DNA of 59,899 nt from Patescibacteria group bacterium (GCA_041658785.1 JBAZZL010000004.1:1-59899); one strand, 5' to 3'. Shown: positions 7,389 to 54,775, counted from the stretch's first letter. Notes: generated by a model not told the origin, from the sequence alone. Program-made: numbers and translations.

Positions 7389-7426
<38 letters not shown>

Positions 7427-8624: not shown

Positions 8625-8721
8625 GTTAGTTTCTTTCTTTTCCTCTGGCTACTGAGATGTTTCACTTCACCAGGTCTTCTCCATACACCTATGTATTCAG
8701 TGTATGGTACCAGTGTTTCAC

Positions 8722-14125: not shown

Positions 14126-14248
14126 GAAATCCGCACTGTCCGAGCGCGAAATTCGTCCGCCGAACCGCGGACTCATTTCGCTACTCCACATAAAATAATC
14201 AAACGCGTAAGTCATGATTACTTTAAATTTACTTCCATCATTATTCCC

Positions 14249-14313
14249 TATTTCTAATTTCCAATTTCCAATTTCTAATTTCCAATTTCTAATTTCTAAT
14301 TTCCAATTTCCAA
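14249..14313. repeat. tandem 8-nt word array (atttccaa / atttctaa)
   Basis: tatttctaatttccaatttccaatttctaatttccaatttctaatttctaatttccaatttccaat, read directly in the NYN-pnp spacer. Confidence 0.95.
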
Positions 14314-24244: not shown

Positions 24245-24310
24245 ATTTGCGTAGTTTAAAAAATAATGTTAGGCGTATTATAGCGCTGCGCGGCAAGAAA
24301 GTCAAACACG

Positions 24311-24358
24311 ATTATTGTTACATTGTTAAATTGTTACATTGCTACATGGCTACATTGT
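24311..24358. repeat. word array attgttacattg-type (left flank of four-helix-bundle gene)
   Basis: attattgttacattgttaaattgttacattgctacatggctacattg. Confidence 0.9.
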
Positions 24359-24362
24359 TTGT

Positions 24363-24743
24363 CTAAAACTTTAATTTTGCGTTAGTAAAAGCAATGAGGC
24401 CATTAACTTCTTTGGGGAGTTTGTTTAATTCTCCCATAATATGGTCGTACTGTTTTTGACTAATCAACCCGCGTACCTTTGCTTTCAATGTCCAATCACA
24501 GCATTCTTTAACTGAACCGTAAGTATAACGATAAAATTTTATCTTATCTTTTTTACTGTATCTGCCAAAACCTTCGGCAATGTTCGCAGAATTGGAATCA
24601 ACCGCTCTTACCCACTGTTTGCCGATCGTATCTTTGGCAAAAAAATCCCACTTTATTACAATATCCCAAACATAATTAGACAAATGAAAAGCCATCTTAT
24701 ACGCGCCAATATCATTGAGTTGAAGATATTTTTGCTCTGACAT
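24363..24743 (-). CDS. four-helix-bundle protein (23S rRNA intervening-sequence protein family)
   Basis: FKMAFHLSNYVWDIV...RAVDSNSANIAEGFGRYSKKDKIKFYRYTYGSVKEC matches the family pattern recalled from memory. Confidence 0.75.
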   Translation of the reverse strand: MSEQKYLQLNDIGAYKMAFHLSNYVWDIVIKWDFFAKDTIGKQWVRAVDSNSANIAEGFGRYSKKDKIKFYRYTYGSVKECCDWTLKAKVRGLISQKQYDHIMGELNKLPKEVNGLIAFTNAKLKF

Positions 24744-24747
24744 AAAA

Positions 24748-24787
24748 AACAATTTAACAATTTAGCAATGTAACAATTTAGCAATAA
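24748..24787. repeat. inverted copy of the same word array (right flank)
   Basis: aacaatttaacaatttagcaatgtaacaatttagcaat. caatgtaacaat is the reverse complement of attgttacattg. Confidence 0.9.
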
Positions 24788-26863
24788 TCAAAGCTCTTCA
24801 ATCCCCTTCAAAAAACTTCTTCTTGGCTTGTCGCCATCCAACGGTTCATACCTAACTCCTTCGTCATTATTATCCAAATCAAACACATTACTCTCTCCGC
24901 CAAACCCGCTCTCGCTCACCAAATCTCTGTTAATTTCTTCTAAAAACATGCTCGGCCCCTGCGAGAAACTGGAATAACCGCCGGACAAGGGATAGGTGAG
25001 ATAGAGATATTTTTTCGCCCGCGTCAGGGCCACGTAAAACAACCTCCGCTCTTCTTCTATTCCGTCTAATTCTTTTATCGCCCGCTCGTTGGGAAACTGA
25101 CCGGCGGATAAATTTAAAATAAAAACCGCTTCCCATTCCAGCCCTTTGGCCTGATGAACCGTGGAGAGAATTATTTTTTCATTGTCCGACAGAGGCGAGG
25201 CGTGCCTCGCCTCTACGGACTCGCGGCCATAATTCTCCTGCATCGTGGCTTCGGCGAGAAACGCGGACAGATCCGACTGGCGCTCGGCAAAAAATGCTAA
25301 CTGTTCCAAATCCTGCAACCGCTCGCGATAATCCTGATATTCGTATTCCAGATATTCGGCGTATTTTGATTCCAACACCGCGCGAATCAATTCCGCCGGC
25401 GCGCCATTGGTTTTGAACATGGTTTCGTAAATCTGCAAAAAATCATTCCACCCGACCTGGGCGCGGGGCGGCAAATCAATCGCCACCCCCTCTCCTTTTA
25501 GGAGAGGGGTCAGGGGGTGAGGTGTCGGACTACCACCAACCGAACGAACCGCGTCTATAATCCTCTCCGCCGTCGCCGCCCCAATCCCCTGTTGCATATT
25601 CAACACCCGCCCCCACGCGATCGCGTCGTTTTTGTTGTTAAAAATCCGCAAATACGCCAAAACATCTTTGATGTGCGCCCGTTCAAAAAATCTGATCCCG
25701 CCGCGATAGTCATACGCGATGCCCCGCTTGGTCAATTCCATTTCCAAGGCCTGCGAATGAAAAGCGGCGCGGAACAAAACTGACATTTCTTTCAGATGCA
25801 CACCTTCGTCGCGCAATTCCAAAATTCTTTCGGCAATAAACTCGGCCTCTTCATTTTGATCCGCGAACGAACGCACTTCCGGTTTGGTAAATCTCTCTTT
25901 CATGCTTTTCAGATTTTTATCGTACTGCTTTACATTGTTGGAAATAACATCATTGGCCAAATTTAAAATATCCGGCGTTGATCGGTAATTTGTTTCTAAT
26001 CGAAAAATTTTAGCTCCCGGATATTCTTTTTCAAACGCTAAAATATTCTGAATATCGGCCGCGCGAAACGAATAAATGCTCTGGGCATCGTCGCCAACCA
26101 CCAAAATATTTTTATGTTTAGAAGCCAGCAAGCGAATAATTGACGCCTGCACCCGATTAGTATCCTGATATTCGTCAACCAGAATATATTGAAACTGATC
26201 CGCCGCTTTAGTTCGGACTTTTTCCGACTTGGCCAAAAGCAAATGCAGATTAACGAGCAGGTCGTCAAAATCCATCACATTGCCCGCGCGCTTGCGCTCG
26301 TCATAGTCCTTGGCAATCCGGCCAATGGTTTCGCCAATGTCTAACCAATTCGGATATTTCAATTCCAATACCGCCTCAATCGTCTCCTCGGCATTGCGCG
26401 CGTAACTGACAATGGACTGAATCACGCCAGCCGAAGGAAATCGCCGCTGTTTCCGGTCAATTCCTTCTTGTTTCAAACACAATTTAATCAAATCCAGACT
26501 GTCAGCGCTGTCCAAAACGGAAAAATTATTTTTGTATTGCAAAAACGGCGCGTATTTTTTTAATATCCGGTACGCGATGTGATGAAACGTGCCGGACCAG
26601 GGCAGTAGAGGCGCAAAATCTTGCGCCTCTACTGCCCTGGCCAATCGCCCCACCCGTTCAATCATCTCTCGCGCCGCTTTATTGGTGAACGTTACCAGCA
26701 AGATATTTTTTGGATCAACGCCTTTTTCAATCAAATATGCCACGCGGTAAGTGATGGCGCGCGTCTTGCCCGACCCGGCGCCGGCCAAAACTAAACACGG
26801 GCCGGCGGCGTTTTGGACGACGTTCAATTGTTCGGGGTTGAGTTCTTTGTGATAGTCAATCAT
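24788..26863 (-). CDS. UvrD/PcrA/Rep-family ATP-dependent DNA helicase
   Basis: Walker A AGAGSGKT, TFTNKAAREM, DEYQDTN, VGDDAQSIYSFR and TVHQAKGLEW motifs. 691 aa. Confidence 0.92.
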   Translation of the reverse strand: MIDYHKELNPEQLNVVQNAAGPCLVLAGAGSGKTRAITYRVAYLIEKGVDPKNILLVTFTNKAAREMIERVGRLARAVEAQDFAPLLPWSGTFHHIAYRILKKYAPFLQYKNNFSVLDSADSLDLIKLCLKQEGIDRKQRRFPSAGVIQSIVSYARNAEETIEAVLELKYPNWLDIGETIGRIAKDYDERKRAGNVMDFDDLLVNLHLLLAKSEKVRTKAADQFQYILVDEYQDTNRVQASIIRLLASKHKNILVVGDDAQSIYSFRAADIQNILAFEKEYPGAKIFRLETNYRSTPDILNLANDVISNNVKQYDKNLKSMKERFTKPEVRSFADQNEEAEFIAERILELRDEGVHLKEMSVLFRAAFHSQALEMELTKRGIAYDYRGGIRFFERAHIKDVLAYLRIFNNKNDAIAWGRVLNMQQGIGAATAERIIDAVRSVGGSPTPHPLTPLLKGEGVAIDLPPRAQVGWNDFLQIYETMFKTNGAPAELIRAVLESKYAEYLEYEYQDYRERLQDLEQLAFFAERQSDLSAFLAEATMQENYGRESVEARHASPLSDNEKIILSTVHQAKGLEWEAVFILNLSAGQFPNERAIKELDGIEEERRLFYVALTRAKKYLYLTYPLSGGYSSFSQGPSMFLEEINRDLVSESGFGGESNVFDLDNNDEGVRYEPLDGDKPRRSFLKGIEEL

Positions 26864-27218: not shown

Positions 27219-27646
27219 ATCGTCCTCTCTGGGTGAAAACCTGGGTGAAGACCTTGATAAACAGAAAGAGCTTTCCAACCAAGGAAAACTCTTATGAAGA
27301 TCTTTCTATTGTGATGACAAACACGCTGAATGAAATCATCACTTTTTAAGTGAAAGATCTTCATAGGAATTTTCCTATGGTCAGCGCGTTTGTTCAGCGT
27401 GTTTATCCCGTTAAACGGGACTTGTTATAAAAAGAAAAACCACCGCAAATGTGGGCGGTGGCTTGATTTTTTTCTGGATTACCTTGCGTCTATCCAACAG
27501 CAAAATCAACCACCGAATGGCGGAGGATAATAAGCGCCAAGATAATTGACTTTCTAAAACGAAAATACATAATCTGTCTGTTTTTATCATTATCACCTTC
27601 CGAACAAAATATGTCAAGGGGACTGTGGATAAACAACCACCCACTA

Positions 27647-29778: not shown

Positions 29779-29823
29779 TGGCTGGCGGTAGTCCGACAAG
29801 TAATCCTTCTGTTTATTAGCGCT

Positions 29824-29990
29824 GGCGGTAGCCCGACAACTCTATCTCTGTCTCTTTCCCTTATGAAGGGAAAGAGAACCCGTTAAGTAAGTTTAACTCT
29901 AATCCAATCGTAAGCCCCTTTCCCTTCGTACTTGTCCCGTCGGATACGGGAAGGGAAAGGGGTTGGGGATAGGGTTGTCGGACTACCACC
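29824..29990 (-). mobile_element. MITE-like foldback element, family 1, copy A (inverted relative to B and C)
   Basis: Termini are ggcggtagcccgacaac ... gttgtcggactaccacc. Internal hairpins are ctctttcccttatgaagggaaagag and cccctttcccttc..gaagggaaagggg. A solo terminus ggcggtagtccgacaag sits at 29784-29800. Confidence 0.8.
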
Positions 29991-30736: not shown

Positions 30737-30800
30737 CGATGGCCGTCGGGTAGCCACGACACCAGCAGTAACCAGGAGGGATTGAAATTCACGGACGAAA

Positions 30801-30875
30801 AACAAAACCGACTGGCCACTGCGCAAGTTTCTGTGGTAAACAGAAATTTACGTAGGAGTTCCAGTCGGTTTTGTT
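30801..30875. terminator. long hairpin downstream of ruvC
   Basis: aacaaaaccgactgg (30801-30815) pairs with ccagtcggttttgtt (30861-30875). T-rich sequence follows on both strands. Confidence 0.6.
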
Positions 30876-30919
30876 GTTTTCAAATTTCTTCCGTAGGTGG
30901 ACACTATCTGCCTCTGTCT

Positions 30920-31426: not shown

Positions 31427-31446
31427 AATTTATCGCCCACTGCATA

Positions 31447-31604
31447 AATTCACCTAATTAACCTAATTGTCTAATTCACCCATTCGGCTTCGCTCAGGGC
31501 AAGCTCTAATAAAATATCAAATGTCTAATAACAAAATCTCTCTTGGGGTTTAGTTATTAGAAATTTTTTAGGTGAATTAGGTGAATTAGAAATTAGGTGA
31601 ATTT
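31447..31604. repeat. foldback: cacctaatt-word arm, 88-nt core, inverted aattaggtg-word arm
   Basis: aattcacctaattaacctaattgtctaattcaccc (31447-31481) pairs with aggtgaattaggtgaattagaaattaggtgaattt (31570-31604). Confidence 0.9.
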
Positions 31605-31611: not shown

Positions 31612-32346
31612 TCAGGCTTCATTGGTATACACCTCTTTCACATCCTCCAGCTCTTCCAACGCGCCAAACAACTCCGCCATTTTTTTGGAAATATTTTCAT
31701 CAACCTTAATCTCCTCCTTCGCCACCCACTCCGATCCGGCGCTCGCCGGTTCAATACCAAAAGAACGCCCCGCTTCCAAAACCTTCTGAAACTTTTCCAT
31801 CGAACAGCGAATTTCCATCCCGAACTCGCTATCAACAATATCATCAGCGCCGGCGTCAATCAGTGCCAATTCAAAATCGGACTTTTCACTTTGGACTTTG
31901 GACTTTTGACTTTCATCAAGACGGACTACGCCCAACTGCCCAAACTGCCACCGCACGCTCCCCGGTCCGCCAAGCGAACCGCCGTATTTGGAAAACACGT
32001 TCTTCAATTCTCCGACCGTGCGGTTGGTGTTATCAGTAATCGTTTCAATCAAAATCGCGACACCGCCCGGCCCGTATCCTTCGTAAATCACTTCCTGAAT
32101 CGCGGCTTCGTCTTTCAATTCGCCGGTGCCGCGCTTGATCGCGTGGTCAATCTTGTCTTTCGGCACATTGCCGGCCCGGGCTTTCTCAATCGCGAGCCGC
32201 AGAGAAAAATTCGTATCTACTTCTCCCCCGCCCTGCTGGGCCGCGACTGTAACCGCCCGGCAAAGTTTGGTAAACAAATCCCCCCGCATCGCGTCCCGCT
32301 TGCCTTTTTTCTGTTGAATATTGTGCCACTTGGAGTGACCGGACAT
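31612..32346 (-). CDS. yebC: YebC/PmpR-family transcriptional regulator
   Basis: MSGHSKWHNIQQKKGKRDAMRG start. 244 aa. Confidence 0.92.
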   Translation of the reverse strand: MSGHSKWHNIQQKKGKRDAMRGDLFTKLCRAVTVAAQQGGGEVDTNFSLRLAIEKARAGNVPKDKIDHAIKRGTGELKDEAAIQEVIYEGYGPGGVAILIETITDNTNRTVGELKNVFSKYGGSLGGPGSVRWQFGQLGVVRLDESQKSKVQSEKSDFELALIDAGADDIVDSEFGMEIRCSMEKFQKVLEAGRSFGIEPASAGSEWVAKEEIKVDENISKKMAELFGALEELEDVKEVYTNEA

Positions 32347-32610
32347 AAAAAATGAAGATTAAAAGATTAAAAGATTACGAATTGCCATCCAATGGCAATC
32401 TTTTAATCTTCAATTCTTATTACTCGACTGTCTCATTGTTACATTGTTACATTGTCGTGTTGGCGTGCTTTCGTGTTGTCGTGACCACAGTATACCGTCC
32501 AAGCCATTTTTTTTCAAGCAAAAAGCGCCATTCCCATGGCGCCTTTTGTCTCCTGCGGATCCTCCTGTTTTTGAGACAGTTGGATCCGCATTGTATGTCT
32601 CCTTCAGCTC

Positions 32611-33540: not shown

Positions 33541-34710
33541 ATGAAATCCACTCCCTCAAAACTAATCCTAAAAAACAAAACCCAATTCCCCGGCTACTCC
33601 CCGTCGTGGCAGACCGACTGGTATTCCGGCGAAGTCGTTTTCACTACCGGCATGACCGGTTATGTGGAGACGCTCACCGATCCGTCTTACGCCGGGCAGA
33701 TCATCGTCTTCACTTATCCGCTGATCGGCAACTATGGCGTCCCTGCCGTAAAGACGCCCCGTTGGGGCGTCTCTGGCGCCCGTTGGGGCGTCTCTCGTCA
33801 TGGCATCTCCGGCTGGGAGTCAAACAAAATCCACGCCGCCGGCGTCGTCGTCTCCGAAGCGTGCGAGAATTGGAGCCACGCGGACGGAAAATTGTCATTG
33901 CTGGAATGGTTAAAAGAGCAGAAAGTGCCAATTATTACCGGCGTAGACACACGGGCGTTGACGAAGATGTTGAGAGAATATGGAGTGATGCTTGGAGCGA
34001 TTAACACGAGGCACGAGGCACGTAACACGAGACACGAAACACGAAACACGAAACTGGAAACAATTGTCCGATTACCAATTACTAATTATAAATTCATTGA
34101 TCCAAATAAAAAAAACCTTGTAGCAAAAGTATCCTGCAAAAAAAAGAAAACCTACGGCAAGGGCAAAAAAATCATTTTCGCCGTTGACTGCGGCATGAAG
34201 GAAAGTATTATGCGGGAATTAAAAAAGTTTGACCTGACGATTCACCGCGTGCCGTATAATTATGATTATACCAAGGAGAAGTTTGACGGCGTCGTATTGT
34301 CCAACGGTCCCGGAGATCCGATGATGGCGAACGAAACGATTGAGATTTTGAAACGGGCGATGAAATTCAAAAAACCGATCTTTGGCATCTGTCTCGGTTC
34401 ACAACTGATGGGTCTCGCGGCCGGAGCAAAAACCTACAAACTGCCATACGGACATCGCGGGCAGAACCAGCCGGTAATTGAAACCGCGACCAAACGCTGT
34501 TATATCACCAGTCAAAATCACGGTTATGCTGTTAACGAAAAATCATTGCCGCGCGATTGGCGGGTAAATTTTCGCAATCTGAACGACGGCTCGGTGGAAG
34601 GCGTGGCGCATAAACGCCTGCCGTTTTTTTCGGTACAGTTTCATCCGGAAGCGGCGCCGGGGCCTACTGATACGGCTCGGTTGTTTAGACAATTTTATGA
34701 ATTGTTGTAA
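33541..34710 (+). CDS. carA: carbamoyl-phosphate synthase small (glutaminase) subunit, with two repeat-derived insertions
   Basis: [22 protein letters not shown], catalytic GICLGSQLM, and VQFHPEA. Confidence 0.92.
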
Positions 34711-34724: not shown

Positions 34725-34888
34725 GCAGCCCGACAACCCTATCCCCAACCCCTTTCCCTTCCCGTATCCGACGGGACAAGTACGAAGGGAAAGGGGCTAA
34801 CGATTGAATTTAAGTTAACCTTACTTTATTTGGTTCTCCTTCCCTTCATAAGGGAAGGAGACAGAGGTAGGGTTGTCGGGCTACCGCC
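34725..34888 (+). mobile_element. MITE-like foldback element, family 1, copy B (carA-carB junction)
   Basis: gcagcccgacaaccctatcccc ... ggtagggttgtcgggctaccgcc. Internal hairpins are cccctttcccttc..gaagggaaagggg and ctccttcccttcataagggaaggag. Confidence 0.85.
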
Positions 34889-34899
34889 AACCAGAGCTT

Positions 34900-37800
34900 A
34901 TGTCACAACGCAACACACAACCCCGCACTGTCTTAATCTTAGGTTCAGGTGGACTAAGAATCGGCCAAGCCGGCGAGTTTGACTATTCCGGCTCTCAAGC
35001 CATAAAAGCTTTGAAAGAAGAAGGAATAAAAACCGTCCTGATCAATCCCAACATCGCCACAGTCCAGACCGATCCGACAATGGCCAACACGGTTTATCTC
35101 CAGCCGTTGAATTTTGACATTGTCAGCAAAATTATTGCCCAGGAAAAACCGGATGGCCTGCTTTTGAGCTTTGGCGGGCAGACGGCGCTTAATTTAGGAT
35201 TGGAATTGGCAGAAAAGGGAGTATTGAAAAAATATCAAGTGGCGGTAGTGGGAACGCCGGTGCAGGCGATTAGAATTACTGAAGACAGGGATTTGTTCAA
35301 AAAAGAGCTGAACAAAATTGAAGTCAAAACGCCGAAGAGTGAAGCAGTAAAGACTGTCGCCGATGCTCTCCGCGCGGCGAAAAAAATCGGTTATCCCGTG
35401 ATGATGCGTTCAGGATTTTCTTTGGGCGGATTGGGCAGCGGAGTGGTGCGCGAGGAAAAAGAACTAAAGAAAAAAGCCGGCGAGGCCCTAAGCACTGTAC
35501 CGCAAATTTTGATTGAAGAATATTTAGGCGGGTGGAAAGAAGTGGAATATGAAGTGGTGAGGGACGGCGCTGACAACTGCATTACGGTTTGCAACATGGA
35601 AAATTTTGACCCGATGGGCATTCATACTGGCGAGAGCATTGTGGTGGCGCCTTCGCAGACCTTAAATAATCATGAGTATCATTTATTGCGCGAAGTAAGC
35701 ATCAAAATCGCCCGGCAAATTGGCATTATCGGCGAGTGCAATGTGCAGTTTGCGCTAAATCCAGAGAACAGTGATTATCGGGTAATAGAAATGAATGCCC
35801 GACTTTCCCGTTCCAGCGCCTTGGCTTCCAAAGCTACTGGCTATCCGCTCGCCTTTGTCGCGGCCAAGCTGGCTCTGGGCAAGCGTCTGGATGAACTGAA
35901 AAATGCGGTGACCCAAAAAACCTCGGCCTTTTTTGAACCAGCTCTGGATTACCTAGCGCTAAAAATTCCGCGCTGGGACACGCATAAATTAAAAACCGCC
36001 GAACGCTTTATCGGCACGGAAATGAAAAGCGTCGGCGAGGTGATGGCGATCGGCCGCTCGTTTCCCGAGGTTTTGCAAAAAGCGGTGCGGATGCTGAACC
36101 ACGGCATGACCGGAGTGCATGATTATCCGTATAAAATAAATAATATCAAAGACGAAATCGCCCGGCCGACCGACCGGCGGCTGTACGCGTTGTATAAGTT
36201 TTTTTCTGCCGGCGGTTCGGTGAACGAGGCGCATAAACTGTCCGCGATTGACCCGTGGTTTTTGCATCATATTAAAAGAATCGCAGAGGTGGAGAAATTG
36301 GAAATTAGAAACTGGAAATTAGAAACTGGAAACAAGTTACAAGTTACAAGTTACAAGTTACAAAAAGCCAAACAATTCGGCTTCTCCGACCGCGCTATCG
36401 CGACTATCGTTGGCACCGACGAAGAGGCCATTAGAACCCAACGGCTTAAAGCGGGAATCAAGCCGGTCGTAAAACAAATTGACACTCTCGCCGGCGAATT
36501 TCCGGCGCAAACGAATTATCTTTATCTGACTTATCATGGAACGAAGAATGACTTAAAACCGAGCGCGAAAAAGCCGATCGTGGTTCTCGGCTCCGGACCA
36601 TATTCAATCGGTTCGTCCGTGGAATTTGATTGGTCGGCGGTAAATACCGCGAGAACATTAAGAAAACACCATGAACAAACTATCATTATCAATTCCAATC
36701 CCGAAACCGTTTCCACGGATTATGATGAATCCAATCGGCTGTATTTTGAAGAACTGACTTTGGAACGGGTGCGAGACATCGCTGATTTTGAAAAAACCAA
36801 AGGCATCATTGTCTCGGTCGGCGGACAGATTGCCAACTCGCTCGCCATGCCGCTTTATAAATCGGGCTACAAAATTTTAGGAACATCGCCCGAAGATATC
36901 GACCGGGCCGAAGATCGGGCAAAATTTTCTTCTTTGCTTAATGAATTAAAAATTGACCAGCCGGAATGGGAAGAGGCTTCCACGATTGACAAAGCAAAAA
37001 AATTCGCGGATCGGGTGGGGTATCCGATATTAGTTCGTCCCTCGTATGTTCTCTCCGGCGCGGCCATGAACGTGGTTTATGATGAAGAAACATTAAAAAA
37101 ATATCTGACCGACGCGGCCACGGTTTCGCCGGATCATCCGGTCGTGATTTCGCGATTTTTGACCGGCGCCAAGGAGCTCGAAATTGACGGCGTGGCCGAG
37201 AAAGGAGAAATCAAAATCGAAGTCATGAGCGAACATGTAGAAAATGCCGGCGTGCATTCGGGCGACGCGACCATTGTTGTTCCGCCGCAACGGTTATACC
37301 TAGAAACCATTCGTCGCGCCAAAAGATTGGCAAGAAAAATCGTCCGCGCGCTGAATATCACCGGCCCGTTCAACATCCAATTTTTGGCCAAAGAAAATTG
37401 GTTGAAAATCATTGAATGCAATCTGCGCGCCTCTCGTTCTTTTCCGTTTGTTTCCAAAGTTACCGGATATAATCTGATAGAAATCGCCACAAAAATTTTA
37501 CTCGGCCAGCATCGCCCCGCCCAATACCACACCATGGAACTTGACTACGTCGGCGTCAAAACGCCTCAATTCTCTTATAGCCGCCTCAAAGGCGCGGATC
37601 CGGTGGCGCAAGTGGAAATGGCCTCCACCGGCGAAGTGGCCTGCATCGGCGATGATTATCTGGAAGCGTTCATGCTCTCGTGGCTCGCGACCGAACAGAC
37701 AGTCAAAGGCAAAAATATCCTGCTCTCCATTGGCAGAGAAAATAAAAACAAATTATTTGAATGGATTCAAAAGCTGGACGAAAAGGGTTGGAATATCTAT

Positions 37801-40708: not shown

Positions 40709-41980
40709 ATGCGGATAAAATTTTGGGACAATAAAATACTCAATCTGGATTTGCCGGCGGAATTGTTCGGAAGCAATTTAATTGCCCTGCCGGCGCTGGT
40801 TGATCCGCATGTCCATTTTCGCATGCCTGGAGGAGAAAACAAAGAAGATTGGCAGACAGCGGCGCAGGCGGCGATTGCCGGCGGTGTTACCACGGTTTTT
40901 GACATGCCGAATAATACCCCCGCGATCGTTGACGAGAAGGCTTTGTTGGACAAAAAGAAATTGATTGACAGCCAATTGGCGGAGGCCGAGATACCTTTGC
41001 GTTATCATTTGTATTTTGGCGCTACGCCGGACAATTTGGACGAAATTGAGAAAGTAAAAAATCAGATTATCGGCATAAAATTATTCATGGGGTCCAGCAC
41101 TGGCGATCTGTTGGTTGATAAAAAAGAGGATCAGGAGAGAGTGTTTAAAAAAGCGGCGGAATTGAATTTACTCGTTGCGGTGCACGCGGAAGATGAAGAG
41201 TGTATACGGGAGAGTGTTGAAAGATCAAAAGGCTTGTCCCGAGTAGAACCGAGGGATCAGAAGATCAAAAGATCAGACGGTAAAATCGCACCCGCTAAAC
41301 TTCATTCTAAAATAAGATCAAGAGAGGCGGCGGTGAAAGCCGTTACTCAAGCGCTTGGATTGGCGAGAAAATATGCAACAAAATTGTATATTTTGCATGT
41401 CAGCGCCAAAGAGGAGCTTAATTTAATCCGGCAGGCAAAAAATGATGGCATTAACGTTTACGCCGAGGCCACGCCCCACCATCTCATTTTGAACGAAAAC
41501 GATTACGCGCGCCTCGGAACCAAAGCGCAGATGAATCCGCCGCTCCGGACCAAAGCCGATAATGACGCTTTGTGGCAGGCGATAAAAGATGGTACAATTG
41601 ACACCGTCGGCACGGACCACGCGCCGCATACTTTGGCGGAGAAAAATCTGCCTTACGGCCAGGCGCCGTCCGGCGTGCCGGGGATTGAAAATTATTTGGC
41701 AATACTCCTAAATGCGCATCATGAAGGAAAAATTACTTTGGAAAAAATTGTTGAGCTGACTCACGATAATCCGCAGAAAATTTTTGGACTTGAGGCAAAT
41801 GATGATTTGGTAATCGTTGATCTTGACAAAACTAGAGTAGTGAGAGATGGAGAGCAGAAAACGAAATGCAAGTGGTCGCCGTATGCGGGGATGATGCTAC
41901 GGGGGTGGGCGGTGGCGGTGGTTTTGCGGGGCAGGGTGTATGGCGGTAGCCCGACAACCCTATCCCTCCACCTCCGCTGA
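40709..41980 (+). CDS. pyrC: dihydroorotase; the last ~13 codons and the stop are supplied by MITE copy C
   Basis: DPHVHFRMPG, VHAEDE and GTDHAPH metal-binding motifs. The C-terminal ...GGSPTTLSLHLR is read from the element terminus ggcggtagcccgacaaccctatcc. Confidence 0.9.
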   Translation: MRIKFWDNKILNLDLPAELFGSNLIALPALVDPHVHFRMPGGENKEDWQTAAQAAIAGGVTTVFDMPNNTPAIVDEKALLDKKKLIDSQLAEAEIPLRYHLYFGATPDNLDEIEKVKNQIIGIKLFMGSSTGDLLVDKKEDQERVFKKAAELNLLVAVHAEDEECIRESVERSKGLSRVEPRDQKIKRSDGKIAPAKLHSKIRSREAAVKAVTQALGLARKYATKLYILHVSAKEELNLIRQAKNDGINVYAEATPHHLILNENDYARLGTKAQMNPPLRTKADNDALWQAIKDGTIDTVGTDHAPHTLAEKNLPYGQAPSGVPGIENYLAILLNAHHEGKITLEKIVELTHDNPQKIFGLEANDDLVIVDLDKTRVVRDGEQKTKCKWSPYAGMMLRGWAVAVVLRGRVYGGSPTTLSLHLR

Positions 41981-42135
41981 CGCTGCGGCGGACAAGCAAC
42001 CCCTTTTTCTTCCCATACCCGATGGAGTAAGTAAAAAAGGAAAGGGGCATACGATTGAATTTAAGTTAAACTTTCTTAAAGGGTTCTCCTCCCCCCGTAA
42101 GGGGAGGAGACAGAGGTAGGGTTGTCCGGACTACC
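41942..42135 (+). mobile_element. MITE-like foldback element, family 1, copy C (pyrC / OTC-like junction)
   Basis: ggcggtagcccgacaaccctatcc ... ggtagggttgtccggactacc. It shares the acgattgaatttaagttaa core with copy B. Confidence 0.85.
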
Positions 42136-42163: not shown

Positions 42164-43111
42164 ATGCGCCACCTAATCTCGCTCAAAGAACAATCCAAAG
42201 AAGACCTTCTCGCCATACTGGATTTGGCCAAAAAAATAAAAGCCAAAAGAAAGGCCGGCGAGCTGACGAACTATTTGCCAAACAAAACTTTGATAATGTT
42301 ATTTCAAAAAACATCTACCCGCACGCGATTGTCGTTTGAGGCGGGCATGACCGAATTGGGAGGACACGCGATTTTTTTGGACGCGAAGACGACGCAATTT
42401 TCGCTGACGGATTTTAAAGACGAAATTCAGGCGGTGATGCGCTACGGGCAGGCGCTGATGTTTCGCGCGAAAAAAGCGGCGGATGTGGAATTGGCGGCGG
42501 CGTTAAATAAAATACCAGTCATTGACGCGTGCAGTGAAAAATATCATCCGGCCCAGGCCTTGAGTGATTTGCTAACCATGTCGGAGCATTCGGGCGGGAT
42601 TGAAAAAATAAAAAAGATCGCCTGGCTGGGAATTGAAAATAATGTTTCCAATACTTTGATGCTCGCTTGCGCTAAGCTGGGAATCAAAGTAGCGATTGCC
42701 GCGGCCGAGGTTGACAGGGACAGCGTTGACGCGGATCTGAACCGGCAGGCGGAGGCGACCGGAAATGTTACGCGGACGCAAAATCTGGCCGAGGCGCTGT
42801 CCGGCGCCGATTATGTGCATACGGATACGTGGATGAATATGGAATTTTTTGATCAGGGAAAAGTGAGGCCGGAATTTCAACCGGAATATGAACGGCGCAA
42901 GAAAACGTTTATGCCGTTTCAGTTGAACGCGGCGATAATCAATCAACACTGCCCGCAAGCGAAAATAATGCACTGCATGCCCTGCCATGTCGGCTATGAA
43001 ATTTCCCGCGACGCGATTGATCACCCCAATTCAATTATTTTTGATCAGGCGGAGAATAGGATGCATGGGCAGAAGGGGATTATTATGTGGTTGTTGGAAA
43101 AAGGAGTGTGA
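42164..43111 (+). CDS. ornithine-carbamoyltransferase-family protein (atypical substrate motif)
   Basis: [18 protein letters not shown] and HCMPCH resemble OTCase. HTDTWMNME stands where I recall OTCases having D-x-W-x-S-M-G. Start set at MRHLISL, because the longer ORF begins inside the MITE. Confidence 0.75.
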   Translation: MRHLISLKEQSKEDLLAILDLAKKIKAKRKAGELTNYLPNKTLIMLFQKTSTRTRLSFEAGMTELGGHAIFLDAKTTQFSLTDFKDEIQAVMRYGQALMFRAKKAADVELAAALNKIPVIDACSEKYHPAQALSDLLTMSEHSGGIEKIKKIAWLGIENNVSNTLMLACAKLGIKVAIAAAEVDRDSVDADLNRQAEATGNVTRTQNLAEALSGADYVHTDTWMNMEFFDQGKVRPEFQPEYERRKKTFMPFQLNAAIINQHCPQAKIMHCMPCHVGYEISRDAIDHPNSIIFDQAENRMHGQKGIIMWLLEKGV

Positions 43112-43156: not shown

Positions 43157-43268
43157 AATTCACCTAATTTCCAATTCACCTAATTCACCTAATAAAATGT
43201 CCAATTTCTAATTTTTTAATTTGACATTTTATTAGGTGAATTAGACAATTAGGTGAATTAGGTGAATT
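43157..43268. repeat. 112-nt foldback made of cacctaatt words (45-nt arms)
   Basis: aattcacctaatttccaattcacctaattcacctaataaaatgtc pairs with gacattttattaggtgaattagacaattaggtgaattaggtgaatt. Confidence 0.92.
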
Positions 43269-43279
43269 TTAAAAGACCT

Positions 43280-44207: not shown

Positions 44208-44395
44208 GAATTAAGTTGAACGCTGCTAAACCGAAAGGATGCCAGACCCACGCACCTCAACCCCCCGCCCCTTCTCCTTGAAGGAGAAGGGGAGACCGCC
44301 AGCGAGAGGTTTTAGTTCCCCTTCCCCTTTTAGGGGAAGGGGACAGGGGATGAGGTGCGCGGGCAGTACCATAGAAACGAACTATGGCTACCTCT
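44208..44395 (+). repeat. foldback element, family 2, copy D
   Basis: taagttgaacgctgctaaaccgaaaggatgccagacccacgcacctcaacccc, hairpins ccccttctccttgaaggagaagggg and ccccttccccttttaggggaagggg, then ggggatgaggtgcgcggg. Confidence 0.85.
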
Positions 44396-44416
44396 ATCAG
44401 GGAGTACAAACAGTTG

Positions 44417-44598: not shown

Positions 44599-44605
44599 TG
44601 CGTTT

Positions 44606-44795
44606 AAGTTGGACGTTGCTAAAACAAAAGGACGTCAGACCCACGCACCTCATCCCTAACCCTTCTCCTTGAAGGAGAAGGGAAGCGATTGACGAGTTTT
44701 TTCGTCTCCCCTTCTCCTCAAAGGAGAAGGGGCCGGGGGGATGAGGTGCGTTGGCGCCACCATACAAACGAATTACCAATGCCTCCCTCAGGCAG
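44606..44795 (+). repeat. foldback element, family 2, copy E (direct repeat of D)
   Basis: taagttggacgttgctaaaacaaaaggacgtcagacccacgcacctcatccc, hairpins cccttctccttgaaggagaaggg and ccccttctcctcaaaggagaagggg, then ggggatgaggtgcgttgg. Confidence 0.85.
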
Positions 44796-44827
44796 CACAA
44801 ACAGACAACACAAACAATCTCTTTATT

Positions 44828-45661
44828 ATGCCAACCGACACCCCCAAAATGTTAAAAATCACGAAAATAACAACCGAAACCCTCCGCGTCAAGACCTTTT
44901 ATTTTAATTACCCGCTAAACAGCCGGCCAGGGCAGTTTGTGATGGTTTGGATTCCGGGCGTTGATCAAAAACCGTTTTCAATCGGTTATGACGACGGCAA
45001 AAAGTTTGGTTTAACCGTCTGCGCCGTGGGGAATTTTTCTAAAAAGTTTTCAACGATGAAAGTCGGCGAAAAAGTCGGCGTTTCCGGTCCGTACGGCACG
45101 AGCTTTTCTCTTAAATCCAATACGCATTACATCACCGTTGCCGGCGGCTACGGCGCCGCGCCGTTGGGTTATCTGGCCGAAGAAGCGTCAAAGTTAAAAA
45201 ATGTTAAAATAGATTTTTTGCTCGGCGCGAAGAGTTGTGATAGTATATTGTTTGAGAAAAGATTAAGTAAGTTAAAAAATACTACGGTGCATTGCGCTAC
45301 GAACGATGGGAGTAAGGGATATCGAGGATTTGTTACTGATTTTTTAAAACAACACATCAACACTCCAACACATCAACACCTAAACCCATCAACACTTAAA
45401 CACGTATTGGTGTGCGCTTGCGGCCCGGAACTGATGGAAAAAAAAGTCTTAGACATCTGCAACGAGCATAAAATAAATTGCGAAGTAAGTATTGAACGAT
45501 ACATGAAATGCGGCCTCGGCGTCTGCGGCCAGTGCGCGGTGGATGACCTTGGTATTTGCATGTGTACGCATGGGCCGGTGGTGAGTCGCGAATTGGCGAA
45601 TAAGATTAAGGAGTTTGGGGTTTATCATCGGGATAAGAGTGGAGCTAAACATAATTTTTGA
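44828..45661 (+). CDS. pyrK: dihydroorotate dehydrogenase electron-transfer subunit
   Basis: FAD/NAD-binding fold and a C-terminal 2Fe-2S cysteine cluster MKCGLGVCGQCAV..CMC. Start set at the ATG at 44828, outside repeat E. Confidence 0.88.
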   Translation: MPTDTPKMLKITKITTETLRVKTFYFNYPLNSRPGQFVMVWIPGVDQKPFSIGYDDGKKFGLTVCAVGNFSKKFSTMKVGEKVGVSGPYGTSFSLKSNTHYITVAGGYGAAPLGYLAEEASKLKNVKIDFLLGAKSCDSILFEKRLSKLKNTTVHCATNDGSKGYRGFVTDFLKQHINTPTHQHLNPSTLKHVLVCACGPELMEKKVLDICNEHKINCEVSIERYMKCGLGVCGQCAVDDLGICMCTHGPVVSRELANKIKEFGVYHRDKSGAKHNF

Positions 45662-45750
45662 ACAAAATTAGACGAAATTAAACAAAATTAAACAAAATTG
45701 GACAGAATTAATTTTGTATAATTTTTTGTAATTTTGTTTAATTTATTTTC
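45661..45750. repeat. five phased 10-mers (aacaaaatta-type) followed by their inverted copies
   Basis: aacaaaatta gacgaaatta aacaaaatta aacaaaattg gacagaatta, then attttgtata attttttgta attttgttta. Confidence 0.9.
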
Positions 45751-45760: not shown

Positions 45761-46381
45761 ATGAATCACGTAATTGACATCCTCAAACGCGTCAGCGCCA
45801 TCCTCGCCAACGACCACTTCGTCGGCACCTCGGGCAGGCATTTTGATACTTATATCAATAAAGACGCCCTTTATCCGCACACGAAGGAGACGTCCGAAGT
45901 CGGCAAAATGTTTGCGGAAAAATATCAGGACTTGGAGATTGATGTTGTCGCGGCGCCGGCTTTGGGGGGAATCATTTTGTCCCAATGGACGGCGTATTAC
46001 TTGTCGGAATTAAAAGGAAAAGAAATTCTTGGAATTTACGCGGAAAAAAAAGACGGGGTCTTGCAATTTACCCGGGGCTATGGCGAGCATTTGAAAAATA
46101 AAAATGTCCTGGTGATTGAGGATTTGACCACGACCGGCGGGTCGCTGAAAAAAGTGATTGATTGCGTCAAGCAGGCCGGCGGCAACGTTGTCGCCGCGTC
46201 AGTGATGGTGAATCGCGATCCCCAATTAGTCAATGCGGAGACGCTCGGCGCGCCTTTTTTCCCGCTCGCGGAGCTGGTCATTGAATCGTATGAGGCGACG
46301 GATTGTCCGCTGTGCAAAAATAATGTGCCGGTGAATACTAAAATTGGACATGGAAAAAAGTTTGTTGAATCTAAAAGATGA
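45761..46381 (+). CDS. pyrE: orotate phosphoribosyltransferase
   Basis: PRPP-binding motif VLVIEDLTTTGGS, and operon context. The start (45734 versus 45761) is uncertain. Confidence 0.85.
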   Translation: MNHVIDILKRVSAILANDHFVGTSGRHFDTYINKDALYPHTKETSEVGKMFAEKYQDLEIDVVAAPALGGIILSQWTAYYLSELKGKEILGIYAEKKDGVLQFTRGYGEHLKNKNVLVIEDLTTTGGSLKKVIDCVKQAGGNVVAASVMVNRDPQLVNAETLGAPFFPLAELVIESYEATDCPLCKNNVPVNTKIGHGKKFVESKR

Positions 46382-46586
46382 TGCGGATTTACAGATTTAT
46401 GCGAATCTACAAAATTACAGATTTACCGTTATCTTGGTAAATCCTGGCAATCATGGAAATCTGTGTCCTATCTAACGATCGCTAGATAGCCCACAGATTG
46501 CCATGATTGTCCATGATTGTCCATGATTATTGAGCGATTATATTTTGTAACTCTGCCATATTCGCATTCATCCGCAAATCCGCATC
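46380..46586. repeat. 207-nt nested palindrome between pyrE and pyrF
   Basis: Outer arms are gatgcggatttacagatttatgcgaat / attcgcattcatccgcaaatccgcatc. Middle arms are ggcaatcatggaaatctgtg / cacagattgccatgattgtcc. The centre is ctatctaacgatcgctagatag. Confidence 0.9.
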
Positions 46587-46606
46587 ATCCTTAAAAAATA
46601 AATACT

Positions 46607-47490: not shown

Positions 47491-48186
47491 TTAATGCGGC
47501 ATTTCATCTATAATTTTTTTGAAATCCTTAGAATCTGCAGAACTGATAACACCCTTGCGGCGGTCCTGTTCAACTTGAAGCTTCATCTTTTTTCGCACTT
47601 GCAAATTAATACCAGCGCCTCTCTTGGCTTTTTGCGCGTGAGGTTTTGTCAAAGTTTCAAAATATTCTCTGTCCTTCTTGCTAATATTCTTGTATGTAGC
47701 CGGCATGTCCTTAGTCATATTAAATAATTTTCTCTGCAATCCCAACCGGCCTTTTGTGCGAAAACCGCCGCCCAGCTTCATTTCTGGAATTTCATATTTT
47801 GACGGCTCCACCGCTTTGGCTGCTTCTTCGGCCGCTTTTCGATCTCTAATCATTTTGCGTATATATTGGTATCTCAAACGATCTCGCGCCTCATCCACAT
47901 ATTCGTTATCATTAATTGACCTTTTGTCCTGCCCATCATGGGCAATGGAAGTGGACGGAGCAGATTGCCATGGTGTTTCGCCAGCAGCTGCCGCAGTATC
48001 GCTCTTGCCGCCAGACTTGCTTTGTAATAATTGGCCTATGGAAACTTTTGCTTGTTCCCTATCTTTGCGTTGCTGAAGTTTGGTAATAGAAAGATCCTGC
48101 GCGTGCCGAATCGGCCCTTTGGGCAATGAAGGATTTTGCCGCTGTGTTGACAATACTGGCGGAAGATTTTGGGGCATACAATTCAA
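47491..48186 (-). CDS. hypothetical basic protein
   Basis: 231-aa ORF, Lys/Arg-rich. No family recognised. Confidence 0.5.
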   Translation of the reverse strand: MNCMPQNLPPVLSTQRQNPSLPKGPIRHAQDLSITKLQQRKDREQAKVSIGQLLQSKSGGKSDTAAAAGETPWQSAPSTSIAHDGQDKRSINDNEYVDEARDRLRYQYIRKMIRDRKAAEEAAKAVEPSKYEIPEMKLGGGFRTKGRLGLQRKLFNMTKDMPATYKNISKKDREYFETLTKPHAQKAKRGAGINLQVRKKMKLQVEQDRRKGVISSADSKDFKKIIDEMPH

Positions 48187-48196
48187 AATGATTTGT

Positions 48197-48295
48197 TATA
48201 CTCAATTGTTATTTAAATTCCAGATAATACCCCGTAGCTCAACGTTAAATTACAGCTAAAACTTAAGGAATTTAATTTTTGCAAAATCGGAATTA
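48197..48295. repeat. inverted repeat, left arm, flanking miaA
   Basis: tatactcaattgttatttaaattccagataataccccgtagctcaacgttaaattacagctaaaacttaaggaatttaatttttgcaaaatcggaatta. Confidence 0.95.
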
Positions 48296-48302
48296 CGGTG
48301 AA

Positions 48303-49259
48303 TTAATAAGACGAAGAGGTATTTATTAAAAATTCATCAACCAATTTCTCCGCATCCTCATACTCACTGCGCCATTTTATTTTTTTGTCGCGTCTAAACC
48401 AGCTTGCTTGACGCCGCGCGTAACGCCTGGTATCTCGCTTAAGCCGCTCAATGGTTTCATCCAATGTAATCTTTTTTTCAAAATAATCTTTAAATTGTCT
48501 ATAGCCTATTCCATTCATGCTTGGCAATACCCAGCCGTATTTTTGACGCACCAAATCCTCAACCTCCTTTAATAAACCAAGCTTCATCATTTCATCAATT
48601 CTCTTATTTATCCTATCATACAATACATCTCTGGGAACATCAATTCCAATTTGCAACGTATCAAACAAGGGATCGCCCTTGCTTCGTTGTTTGGAAAAAG
48701 GTTCTCCCGTAAAGATGCAGACCTCCAAAGCGCGGATTATTCTCCTTTTGTTATTATGATCTATTGTTTCTATAATTTCTGGATCCATCTGGAAAAGCAG
48801 CTGAATCAATTCATCATTGCTCTTCTCTGCCAGACTCTTGCGCAGTTTATTATTTGGAGTTACGCGGGGGATGTGCATATTTTCAACCACAGACGAAATA
48901 TACAAACCTGTTCCGCCGGTAATGAGCGGGAGTTTACCGCTTTTGTGTATAGACTTGATATGCTTTATCGCCTGATCACGAAATTCAGCAACGCTGAATA
49001 TTTTTCCAGGATTCAAAAAATCAACCAAATGGTGAGGAATGTCTTCAATATAGTAAACTTTTGATAAACCGCTTCTGCGCCACTCGCCAGGTTCTTTGGC
49101 TGTGCCAATATCCATTTTTTTATAAATCTGACGAGAGTCGGCAGAAATAATTTCACCTTTATATTTTTTTGCCAGCTGAAGACTCCAGTTGGTCTTACCG
49201 CAAGCGGTTGGACCAAGAATCACCACTAATTTAGGCAATTTTTGACTCTCTTGTCGCAT
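48303..49259 (-). CDS. miaA: tRNA dimethylallyltransferase
   Basis: P-loop GPTACGKT, and ADSRQIYKKMDIGTAK. Confidence 0.92.
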   Translation of the reverse strand: MRQESQKLPKLVVILGPTACGKTNWSLQLAKKYKGEIISADSRQIYKKMDIGTAKEPGEWRRSGLSKVYYIEDIPHHLVDFLNPGKIFSVAEFRDQAIKHIKSIHKSGKLPLITGGTGLYISSVVENMHIPRVTPNNKLRKSLAEKSNDELIQLLFQMDPEIIETIDHNNKRRIIRALEVCIFTGEPFSKQRSKGDPLFDTLQIGIDVPRDVLYDRINKRIDEMMKLGLLKEVEDLVRQKYGWVLPSMNGIGYRQFKDYFEKKITLDETIERLKRDTRRYARRQASWFRRDKKIKWRSEYEDAEKLVDEFLINTSSSY

Positions 49260-49294
49260 ATTGGCATCGCTTTATCTATACCCCTTCGCCTTAT

Positions 49295-49403
49295 TAATTC
49301 CGATTTTGCAAAAATTAAATTCTAATTATTTTGTTAAGTTTTAGCTGTAATTTAACGTTAAGCTGCGGGGTATTATACGGAATTTAAATAACAATTGAGT
49401 ATA
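49295..49403. repeat. inverted repeat, right arm, flanking miaA
   Basis: The rc reads tatactcaattgttatttaaattccgtataataccccgcagcttaacgttaaattacagctaaaacttaacaaaataattagaatttaatttttgcaaaatcggaatta. It is near-identical to the left arm apart from a few substitutions and one ~10-nt indel. Confidence 0.95.
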
Positions 49404-49481
49404 AATATAGAATACCACAAAAATCATATTGATAAAATATGGGCGGGCAAATCCAGCTTCTTTATGATAAAAGCAAAAAGA

Positions 49482-50810
49482 CTAAGCAACAACGCCACAC
49501 AAAATCCACTCGCTCGCTTTTTCAATTTTTACTTTCTGGATTGACCCCAGCATATTTTTTTCTCCATGAAAACTAACAAGCTTCATTTCGCCAGAATTGC
49601 CAAAACACCGTCCGTCTTCAAATCTATCTACCAAAACCGAAACAATTCTACCGATATAATTTTGATTTTTTCTCAATGTTGTTTTCTCCATCAAATCTTG
49701 CAATATCTGCCAACGTCTTTTCTTTTCTGCTTTCAGCACGCTATCTTCAAACATTTTGGCTGCCAGTGTGCCGGAGCGTTCGGAATATTGCGCCGGATAA
49801 GCAATATCAAAATCACACTCTTTGTATAAAGAAACTGTATCTTGAAATTGTTCCTCCGTTTCCCCGCAAAAACCTACAATAATGTCCGTCGCAATGGCAA
49901 TATTCGGCTTTTTTTTACGAATTTTTTTTATTAAATCCAAATAAAATTCCCGATCATGCCGGCGATTCATTTTTTGTAAAATCTCGGTATTGCCTGACTG
50001 TATCGGCAGATGCAGATAATTCATTTGTTTGGGAAGCGTTAGAGCATCAATTACTTCGCCGTCCATATAAATCGGATGCGGACCTGTCCAGTTAATCCTT
50101 TTGATGCCTTCAATTTGATTGATCTCCCAAAGCAGTTTGGCAAAATCATTTTGGCGATAAGGATTTTTGGCAGAAAAATATTCCGTGTCAGACGCGATAT
50201 AACGATTGACAATCTGGCCAAGCAAAGTAATTTCCAAACAGCCGCTGGCTGCCAAGCTGCGGACTTCGGCTAAAATTTGCTTTAAAGGACGATTGCCTTC
50301 TGTGCCGCGGCTGAATGGAACTACACAATAGGCGCAAAAGTGATTGCAACCGGTCTGGATAATAACAAAAGCTTGAAACTTGTTTTTATAAGCTGGACGC
50401 AAGGCCAGATAATCTTTTTTTAAATCTTCCATCGGCCGCAGGTCCGGATTCAAACCTGCCAGCCGTTGCGGCAACTGAATAATCTCATGAATTGGAAAAA
50501 ACAAATCCACTTCTTTCAATCTTTTTTGCAGTTTTCCATCTTTATCGCGGCCCGGCATACAACCTGTCACGCAAACAATCAGATCAGGCTTTTGTCTTTT
50601 TAATTTGGAAAAATTATAACTTAAGCCAAACACCCTGTCCTCAGCGGCCTGCCTTACGCTGCAGCTATTCATAATAATAACATCCGCCTCTTCAGGCTTT
50701 TCCGTTCTAATCAAACCCATTCCTTCCAATATAGTTGTCAGCCGCTCGGAATCGCTCTTGTTCATTTGACAGCCGAAAGTGATGAGATGGTAATAATGTT
50801 GTTTTTTCAT
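49482..50810 (-). CDS. miaB: tRNA-2-methylthio-N6-dimethylallyladenosine synthase (radical SAM methylthiotransferase)
   Basis: YHLITFGCQMNKSDSE, radical-SAM CNHFCAYCVVP, and a TRAM-like C-terminus. It sits next to miaA. Confidence 0.82.
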   Translation of the reverse strand: MKKQHYYHLITFGCQMNKSDSERLTTILEGMGLIRTEKPEEADVIIMNSCSVRQAAEDRVFGLSYNFSKLKRQKPDLIVCVTGCMPGRDKDGKLQKRLKEVDLFFPIHEIIQLPQRLAGLNPDLRPMEDLKKDYLALRPAYKNKFQAFVIIQTGCNHFCAYCVVPFSRGTEGNRPLKQILAEVRSLAASGCLEITLLGQIVNRYIASDTEYFSAKNPYRQNDFAKLLWEINQIEGIKRINWTGPHPIYMDGEVIDALTLPKQMNYLHLPIQSGNTEILQKMNRRHDREFYLDLIKKIRKKKPNIAIATDIIVGFCGETEEQFQDTVSLYKECDFDIAYPAQYSERSGTLAAKMFEDSVLKAEKKRRWQILQDLMEKTTLRKNQNYIGRIVSVLVDRFEDGRCFGNSGEMKLVSFHGEKNMLGSIQKVKIEKASEWILCGVVA

Positions 50811-54383: not shown

Positions 54384-54775
54384 ATTAATTCGATTCAAGA
54401 ATCTAACGCAACAAATTATCAGTGATTTTTAAAAATAATCAAATTTCAGTCCGCCAGCCCAAAGGACTCCTTCGTGAGCTGGCGGACAAAATTTCAAACA
54501 CCGGTATTAACATTTTGAGAATTTTGGATTTTGATTATTGGAATTTATTTGGGATTTGATATTTGGAACTTGTAATTTTTTTATCAAGTGTTGCGTTAAA
54601 AACTTGAGTCCAAGTTTGTATAATTCTGTATAATTCTGTTTAATTTTTTGTAATTTACTGCAATTCCTAATTCACGACGCACGATTCACCCTTCGGCTAT
54701 GCCTAGGGCATGCTCCGCATGATTCACCGCCAATTGTCCAATTGAATCGTGTTGCGCGCATCGTGCATCGTGACT

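Follow-up and report, generated by a model that had tools for sequence, protein, structure and literature searches.

The miaA locus and its flanking repeat

In the DNA analysed here, a stretch of 59,899 nucleotides (nt) from contig JBAZZL010000004.1 of a Patescibacteria group bacterium (GCA_041658785.1), the gene miaA, which codes for a tRNA dimethylallyltransferase of 318 amino acids, is enclosed between two near-identical sequences in inverted orientation. We refer to this whole stretch as the window, and all positions are counted in it. The gene lies on the minus strand (48303-49259) and fills the 955-nt 'loop' between the two arms of the repeat. Upstream on the same strand is miaB (49482-50810), and downstream, again on the same strand, is a conserved hypothetical gene for a protein of 228 amino acids (47491-48177; hereafter hyp). 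An earlier note on this DNA, made from the sequence alone, had named miaA and miaB, and both names are upheld by Pfam domains (IPPT, 6.8e-78, for MiaA; UPF0004, Radical_SAM and TRAM for MiaB).

A repeat finder returned two pairs of complementary segments, 48196-48266 with 49334-49404 (71 nt, 94% complementary) and 48268-48295 with 49295-49322 (28 nt, 100% complementary), together with a weaker inner extension (48300-48329 with 49271-49300). We set the bounds of the arms by gapped alignment and with a hidden Markov model built from both of them. Read from its outer to its inner end, the unit occupies 48196-48322 on the plus strand (left arm, 127 nt, 29% G+C) and 49278-49404 on the minus strand, which is the sense strand of miaA (right arm, 127 nt, 27% G+C). 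When the arms are aligned, 110 of 117 positions are complementary (94%) and the seven substitutions include six transitions. Each arm also has a private block of 10 nt, CAAAATAATT in the right arm only and GAATTACGGT in the left arm only, the latter resembling a slipped copy of CGG..GAATTA; both blocks look like slipped tandem copies of adjoining sequence. Because each arm has its own 10-nt indel, the 22-nt core GAATTTAATTTTTGCAAAATCG is offset by 10 nt between them.

This arm pair is the strongest among all spacers of the window (blastn E = 1e-35), so that the near-identical inverted repeats reported around miaA are indeed present at that place, far above chance. Their geometry had to be revised. 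The arms had been given as 48197-48295 and 49295-49403, about 100 nt each, but they extend further inward; a few substitutions and a single indel of about 10 nt had been counted, and the substitutions stand whereas the indels are two. The left arm was thought to end 8 nt from the miaA stop; in fact the stop (48303-48305) lies inside it, as do the last five codons, and the innermost 20 nt of the arm (48303-48322) consist of this stop, the codons for T S S S Y and two bases of the preceding Asn codon. The right arm was placed 36 nt upstream of the miaA start, and the true gap to the ATG (49257-49259) is 18 nt. The right arm lies entirely within the miaB-miaA spacer, whose 222 nt are made up of 77 nt, the 127-nt arm and these 18 nt. 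On the other side, the ATG of hyp is found 18 nt past the outer end of the left arm. That no further copy of the arm exists within the window was confirmed by blastn at word size 7 and by nhmmer with the arm profile, which agree.

A scan for promoters and terminators found no consensus promoter inside the arms; a TATAAT hexamer in the right arm (49372-49377) has no usable -35 element, as TTGTTA is present only at 11-nt spacing. Just upstream of the right arm, on the minus strand, there is a site, TTGCCC-16-TATGAT (49423-49450), that resembles a promoter by its consensus alone; transcription starting from it would give the miaA mRNA the right arm as its 5' leader. No terminator-like site was predicted on the sense strand between miaB, miaA and hyp. 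We had also taken TGTGGTATAAT, found at the 3' end of miaB in relatives, for a conserved promoter with TGTGGTATTCT, next to the right arm, as its homologue. This candidate was dropped because the stretch in the relatives codes for the C-terminus of MiaB (...GDVV-stop), and the MiaB of the window ends elsewhere.

Origin, orientation and age of the repeat

The nearest homologues of the window's MiaA, 66-72% identical, belong to Candidatus Magasanikbacteria (Patescibacteria, also called candidate phyla radiation, CPR), and the window is assigned to an uncultured species of this group. We compared the miaA locus in seven related lineages (L004/L005, L006, L007, L008, L018, L019-L021 and L022). The order miaB-miaA is kept in the six lineages where it is readable and the hypothetical gene comes next in six; in some relatives thrS lies upstream of the locus and pyr genes lie downstream. 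In the comparison of synteny that the earlier note had recommended, the order miaB-miaA-hyp was thus kept and the repeat absent: none of the seven lineages has an inverted repeat around miaA or a match to the arm profile, and the orthologous sites on both sides of miaA are empty of the unit in all of them. Their miaB-miaA spacer measures 14-29 nt in three of the six readable cases and 41-166 nt in the other three.

The protein alignment was informative for the left arm. The MiaA of the relatives ends 2-4 residues after an EFL-type motif (xFL/xFF), mostly after two (EFLxx-stop), whereas that of the window ends with EFLINTSSSY-stop, a C-terminus five residues longer than theirs. Since the TSSSY codons and the stop lie inside it, the left arm supplies the present end of miaA. 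Moreover, miaA occupies its ancestral position and its G+C content (39.6%) is that of miaB (40.6%), whereas the arms have 27-29%; we conclude that miaA was vertically inherited and that the arms were acquired in this lineage. The window's two spacers were also compared with those of relative L007, in which the genes are ordered alike; no significant homology emerged (best p = 0.035-0.065), and for this reason neither arm can be named as the original one.

The feature is an orphan 127-nt, AT-rich, non-coding spacer unit, inverted on both sides of miaA. We favour, with about even confidence, the explanation that it is a fixed, species-specific inverted pair which was produced by a DNA-level repeat process and has been tolerated, with an RNA duplex as a physical by-product. 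The pair would have arisen either by two insertions of a small non-autonomous element or by local copying of one spacer in inverted orientation, and since their common origin the copies would have diverged by the seven substitutions and by two slippage-type indels of 10 nt. Among the three readings offered in the earlier note, this comes closest to the last, an undescribed repeat present twice, once on each side of the gene. That reading is the best fit, as the repeat is absent in seven relatives, its left copy gives miaA its stop and the genome is full of spacer repeats; the readable 69 kb or so, however, hold no third copy that would point to a dispersed family.

The orientation of the segment was examined in five assemblies: the window, the NCBI metagenome-assembled genome GCA_041645375.1, ENA ERZ27247322, ENA ERZ27249422 and Logan SRR8449812, the last four picked by contigs coding for the exact MiaA or its 228-amino-acid neighbour. 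A similar exact-protein lookup of MiaB, for alternative junctions, returned nothing as this protein is not on record. The five assemblies are colinear, 99.85-100% identical and in one orientation throughout, and both ENA contigs were assembled at k = 141, which exceeds the arm length, and span both arms. In two assemblies the contig breaks near the right arm (at 49455 for the start of the ENA contig and at 49303 for that of the Logan one). The left arm is crossed without a contig break in all five, including the two contigs that end near the right arm. Because branches would be expected at both arms, an inversion polymorphism does not explain these breaks.

These data bear directly on the proposal that the segment is an invertible or mobile cassette. 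Recombination between the arms would flip miaA and act as a phase switch for the i6A37 modification of tRNA. With 127-nt arms, 94% complementary and 955 nt apart, the locus has enough for RecA-dependent inversion, and the contig breaks at 49455 and 49303 could be read in the same sense. However, a single orientation is present in the five assemblies and the breaking contigs pass the left arm intact; besides, the arms differ by seven substitutions and two indels, which frequent exchange would homogenise. Among the genes called in about 10 kb on either side of the repeat there is no transposase, invertase or recombinase gene, and the sole tyrosine recombinase (Phage_integrase) is encoded at the window's left edge, a distance of about 48 kb. 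We consider such an inversion very improbable, though a rare minority form could escape a comparison of assemblies. Nor does the locus have the features of a composite transposon, or of one with long terminal inverted repeats, that carries miaA: no transposase is found, the gene is at its ancestral site and its G+C content is like that of miaB.

The tyrosine recombinase gene is located at 11145-11924 of L014, a contig reaching past the left end of the window, and overlaps an open reading frame (ORF) of the window at 6-314. Beyond the window's left edge it is followed by genes for a 1526-amino-acid helicase/topoisomerase-finger protein and for an RNase_H_2 protein. Close to the other edge, about 0.2-0.6 kb inside the right end, there is a gene for a HicA toxin with an adjoining DUF7387 gene (848-1286 of contig L013).

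Misassembly at the arms, which the earlier note had named as a result that would overturn the feature, is unlikely because the five assemblies are colinear and in the same orientation. It is true that repeats can mislead assemblers and that two contigs end near the right arm. Nevertheless, the same arrangement was obtained from different samples and with different assemblers, contigs made at k = 141 pass through both arms, and seven differences plus the indels let reads be placed unambiguously. An artefact or a chimera at the arms is therefore extremely improbable.

The arms differ from each other by 6% and the strains by 0.03-0.15%, which makes the repeat old in comparison with the strains and means that it has long escaped deletion. 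Strain variation was nevertheless seen in the right arm. ERZ27247322 has five differences from the window in 11 kb, three of which are single-nucleotide polymorphisms (SNPs) in the right arm (49365, 49366 and 49391), 65-91 nt from the contig end; its left arm is unchanged. These SNPs could be strain variation, conversion from an unseen third copy, or a contig-end error. Apart from the locus, the comparison of the window with GCA_041645375.1 revealed 31 differences over 21 kb, 28 of them packed into 124 nt (42409-42532) of an OTCase/ATCase-family gene. This tract has no match elsewhere in the window and is not explained by conversion from a paralogue there; it looks like a recombination import from another strain or an assembly chimera.

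We then come to the search for further copies. The readable genome amounts to about 69 kb, namely the window, 7.3 kb past its left end (L014) and 1.5 kb past its right end (L013), and neither blastn nor nhmmer detected a third arm copy in it. A local inverted duplication is as possible as two insertions. Three 21-22-mers taken from the best-conserved parts of the arms were matched exactly against GTDB species genomes, JGI metagenome contigs and IMG/VR, collections that do not include this genome. Only two isolated hits were obtained; in neither did the similarity extend past the 22-mer, and we take both as chance. BLAST of plasmid and phage records with the arm gave no match, and no Rfam family was matched in the arms, either at gathering thresholds over the whole window or at E <= 10 within 48100-49500. 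Single arms do not fold on themselves better than shuffled sequence (z = +0.92 and -1.08).

It is conceivable that the arms belong to a dispersed MITE-like (miniature inverted-repeat transposable element) or IS200/IS605-derived family, the other copies of which would lie outside these 69 kb; this possibility, which concerns the origin only, seems to us quite unlikely. It would fit with the empty orthologous sites in relatives and with a left copy that overwrites the native stop, and another family of the MITE kind is demonstrably present in this genome, at least four of its copies, which have 17-nt terminal repeats, lying in 60 kb. In addition, the three clustered right-arm SNPs of ERZ27247322 do not come from the left arm, and conversion from a third copy could explain them. 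But the searches gave no third copy, in the window, L013 or L014 or among plasmids and phages, beyond the two chance 22-mers; the unit has no self-fold and no transposase gene was found near it. As to flanking duplications, TTAT is present on both sides of the left copy, but the right copy has TTAT at one end only, with AGAT at the opposite end, hence no duplication; a 4-mer in AT-rich DNA is of little weight. No terminal inverted repeats are present, the ends of the unit, TTATACTCAATTG... and ...CGAAGRGGTAT, sharing no complementarity, and no convincing target-site duplication was found at the arms, so that a classical MITE origin is unsupported.

The lack of these two hallmarks also weighs against the fixed pair of DNA-level origin that we prefer, and it is joined by four other points. 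If insertion is random, it is improbable that two independent events would fall within 1.1 kb of each other while none occurred in the rest of the 69 kb. The 69 kb sampled belong to a genome that we put, as a rough guess, at about 1 Mb, which leaves room for copies of a dispersed family. Both arms are exactly 127 nt long and each is 18 nt from the next ATG, which could hint at constraint, and the long persistence of the repeat is compatible with some function.

The predicted RNA duplex

Pairing between the arms, computed with RNAduplex and cofold, reaches -155.4 kcal/mol, against -28.1 +/- 4.0 for shuffled partners, and the same pairing is recovered when the whole 1316-nt transcript is folded to its minimum free energy. 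The predicted duplex of about 117 base pairs (bp) includes two perfect helices, one of 26 and one of 28 bp, and is interrupted by two 10-nt bulges and three mismatches; four of its pairs are G·U. To judge from the sequence, miaB, miaA and hyp are likely to be co-transcribed, because they are on one strand, no sense-strand terminator is predicted and the genes are tightly packed in several relatives, the spacers of 14-29 nt in three of six suggesting that the operon is ancestral. The co-transcribed arms would pair and close the miaA mRNA into a loop of about 1 kb. Long RNA duplexes of the rRNA-stalk kind are a type of RNase III substrate, and the modelled miaA duplex looks like one; a cut by RNase III would make the miaA message independent of miaB and hyp. 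Furthermore, terminating ribosomes would need to open the inner helix since the miaA stop codon lies in it. The read-through duplex that the earlier note proposed as its second reading is thus physically sound, given the pairing energy, the whole-transcript fold and the lack of a terminator; that it is under selection is not supported by the tests that follow.

If the pairing had been selected, the arms would be an RNA device similar to the stalks of rRNA, from which RNase III frees a miaA message with paired ends. It would set the MiaA dosage apart from that of miaB and hyp, or tie miaA translation to the opening of the stem, the stop codon being in the inner helix. Such a device is the main rival to our explanation, though in our opinion rather unlikely. 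The strength of the duplex in the full-transcript fold, its perfect helices of 26 and 28 bp and the absence of a predicted intergenic terminator are all consistent with it, as are a 28-nt complementary pair flanking the 23S rRNA, the strong structure of most spacers, two arms that both measure 127 nt despite independent indels, and a repeat that outlasts strain-level divergence by far. A precedent for 5'-3' pairing of untranslated regions (UTRs) cut by RNase III is also available in icaR of Staphylococcus aureus (PMC3868564). However, the repeat is in no relative, hence there is no covariation support, and the duplex stops 18 nt before the ATG with no obvious cover of the ribosome-binding site.

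Substitutions within the arms tell against selection as well. Of the right-arm SNPs of ERZ27247322, two disrupt pairing and the third restores it, and the left arm has no change that would compensate; compensatory change or conserved pairing was found neither in the seven lineages, which are devoid of the repeat, nor among the strain SNPs. As each transition mismatch yields a G·U pair on one strand only, we counted on which strand it falls. The six transition mismatches of the arms give G·U on the sense strand in four cases and on the antisense strand in two, and in six palindromic spacers with an unambiguous transcription direction the sense strand has 12 G·U against 16 A·C. No significant sense-strand G·U bias was thus observed for the arms or for the palindromic spacers. 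We see no evidence of selection on the pairing of the arms, and the RNA effect is regarded as a tolerated by-product of the repeat, with no demonstrated adaptation.

The stalk might also be one case of a wider operon 'hairpin punctuation' in this CPR genome, with a slow RecA-driven inversion switch of miaA as a rarer alternative; we judge this broader proposal unlikely.

Repeat-rich spacers and known systems

The spacers of the window are unusually rich in repeats, which shows that a process making inverted spacer duplications, or the insertion of palindromic elements, is active in the lineage. Fifteen of the 38 spacers of 60-500 nt fold with z < -3, the median z being -2.3. The two spacers of miaA are exceptions in the window: taken singly they are unstructured (z = +0.25 and -0.10), their complementarity being mutual. 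Long self-palindromes account for nine spacer stretches. Among these are one of 228 nt (46374-46592), between a phosphoribosyltransferase gene, likely pyrE, and the orotidine monophosphate decarboxylase gene pyrF, one of 113 nt (43157-43268), and a perfect 48-mer palindrome (11643-11690) just downstream of the PNPase gene. Long imperfect palindromes are common in the spacers, as at 45658-45744, 44640-44754, 30798-30878, 27278-27381 and 32345-32420. For the palindromic spacers a DNA-level origin is as likely as an RNA function because their mismatches have no sense-strand G·U bias. Relative L007, with the same gene order, also has palindromic spacers. The palindromic sub-motifs TTTTGCAAAA, TTAACGTTAA and ATTTAAAT were found in no other spacer of the window, and a regulon signal from them was rejected as none recurs.

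A family of MITE-like elements was also observed. These are G+C-rich, intergenic, about 165 nt long, with 17-nt terminal inverted repeats (GGCGGTAGYCCGACAA) and two internal GGGAAGG/CCTTCCC hairpins. Six terminal-repeat sites are present in the window against 0.01 expected, and the family is seen at about 29823-29990, 34727-34889, 41942-42135, 44211-44413, 44604-44804 and 25501-25537; the first two copies are inverted relative to each other, 94% similar, and enclose a 4.7-kb gene block. This density is unexpected for a small CPR genome. Kinship of the miaA arms with this family was looked for by spacer comparison and nhmmer, and none was found.

Other spacers contain tandem arrays of 7-10-nt units (ATTTCGT, ATTTCYA, ATTGTTAC, AATTAGGTG, GAAACAC and others), which recur in distant spacers, often in inverted orientation, many being arranged as inverted pairs. 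Such arrays are found at 2537-2662, 14242-14311, 15633-15745, 24306-24367, 31446-31603, 32419-32464, 34022-34092, 36293-36364, 43157-43269 and 54602-54669. A '23S rRNA intervening sequence protein' (PF05635) is encoded at 24363-24752, with ndk on one side and the gene for a UvrD-like helicase on the other. A 39-nt inverted pair (24322-24360 and 24747-24785, 87%), made of octamers of the ATTGTTAC type, frames this gene exactly, which makes it a second gene of the window enclosed by an inverted repeat. The 23S rRNA itself (4736-8947, minus strand) measures 4212 nt against a model of 2925 nt and has therefore insertions of about 1.3 kb; an ORF for a LAGLIDADG homing endonuclease inside it (5741-6310) suggests, from the sequence, a group I intron. 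The 28-nt complementary pair that flanks it is located at 4717-4744 and 8941-8968. No 16S rRNA gene was found in the window.

What the miaA repeat means depends on which explanation is correct. Should the stalk work at the RNA level, it would be a rare example in bacteria of an entire protein-coding message enclosed within a long duplex of its 5' and 3' flanks, and it would offer a testable handle on post-transcriptional control in CPR bacteria, a subject on which, to our knowledge, there is hardly any information. If, on the other hand, the repeat pair is fixed and nothing more, it is of descriptive value: a small and supposedly streamlined Magasanikbacteria genome tolerates dense spacer repeats, one of which rewrites the C-terminus of a core enzyme, MiaA.

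Among known systems, the processing stalks of rRNA are similar in that complementary sequences flanking a gene, on one transcript, form a duplex around the whole gene, and the 23S rRNA of the window has such a pair. The miaA case is different as the gene is protein-coding, the arms exceed the 23S pair about fourfold in length, are absent in relatives and show no covariation, and cleavage is here predicted only. Intervening sequences of 23S rRNA with a PF05635 ORF are cut out at the RNA level by RNase III. They also have inverted repeats that form a stem around a gene, but they are accessory and lie in rRNA, or are relics of rRNA insertions, whereas miaA is a vertically inherited housekeeping gene in its ancestral position. 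In invertons (fimS, hin and those of Bacteroides), inverted repeats likewise flank a DNA segment; they have, however, short (about 10-30 bp) near-identical repeats, a dedicated recombinase and both orientations, and none of the three was seen at miaA.

In the icaR mRNA of Staphylococcus aureus, a motif of the 3'-UTR pairs with the Shine-Dalgarno region, blocks translation and creates a target of RNase III (PMC3868564). Both cases have a long-range pairing of the two ends of one mRNA that gives a double-stranded RNase III target; the icaR motif is short, whereas the miaA duplex has about 117 bp, stops 18 nt before the ATG and includes the stop codon in its 3' arm. Correia repeat enclosed elements of Neisseria and bacterial MITEs are non-coding repeats of 100-160 nt that adjoin genes, whose transcripts can form RNase III substrates and which may bring promoters (PMC2649163, PMC2229807, PMC10969869). 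The miaA arms resemble them as small repeats beside a gene that are missing from the orthologous sites of relatives. But the Correia unit is self-complementary, has terminal inverted repeats as well as a TA target duplication, and exists in hundreds of copies, whereas the miaA arms are not self-complementary, have no terminal repeats and are known in only two copies, which pair across a gene. We class the repeat pair around miaA as a variant on known themes, those of spacer repeats and of long-range gene-flanking duplexes.

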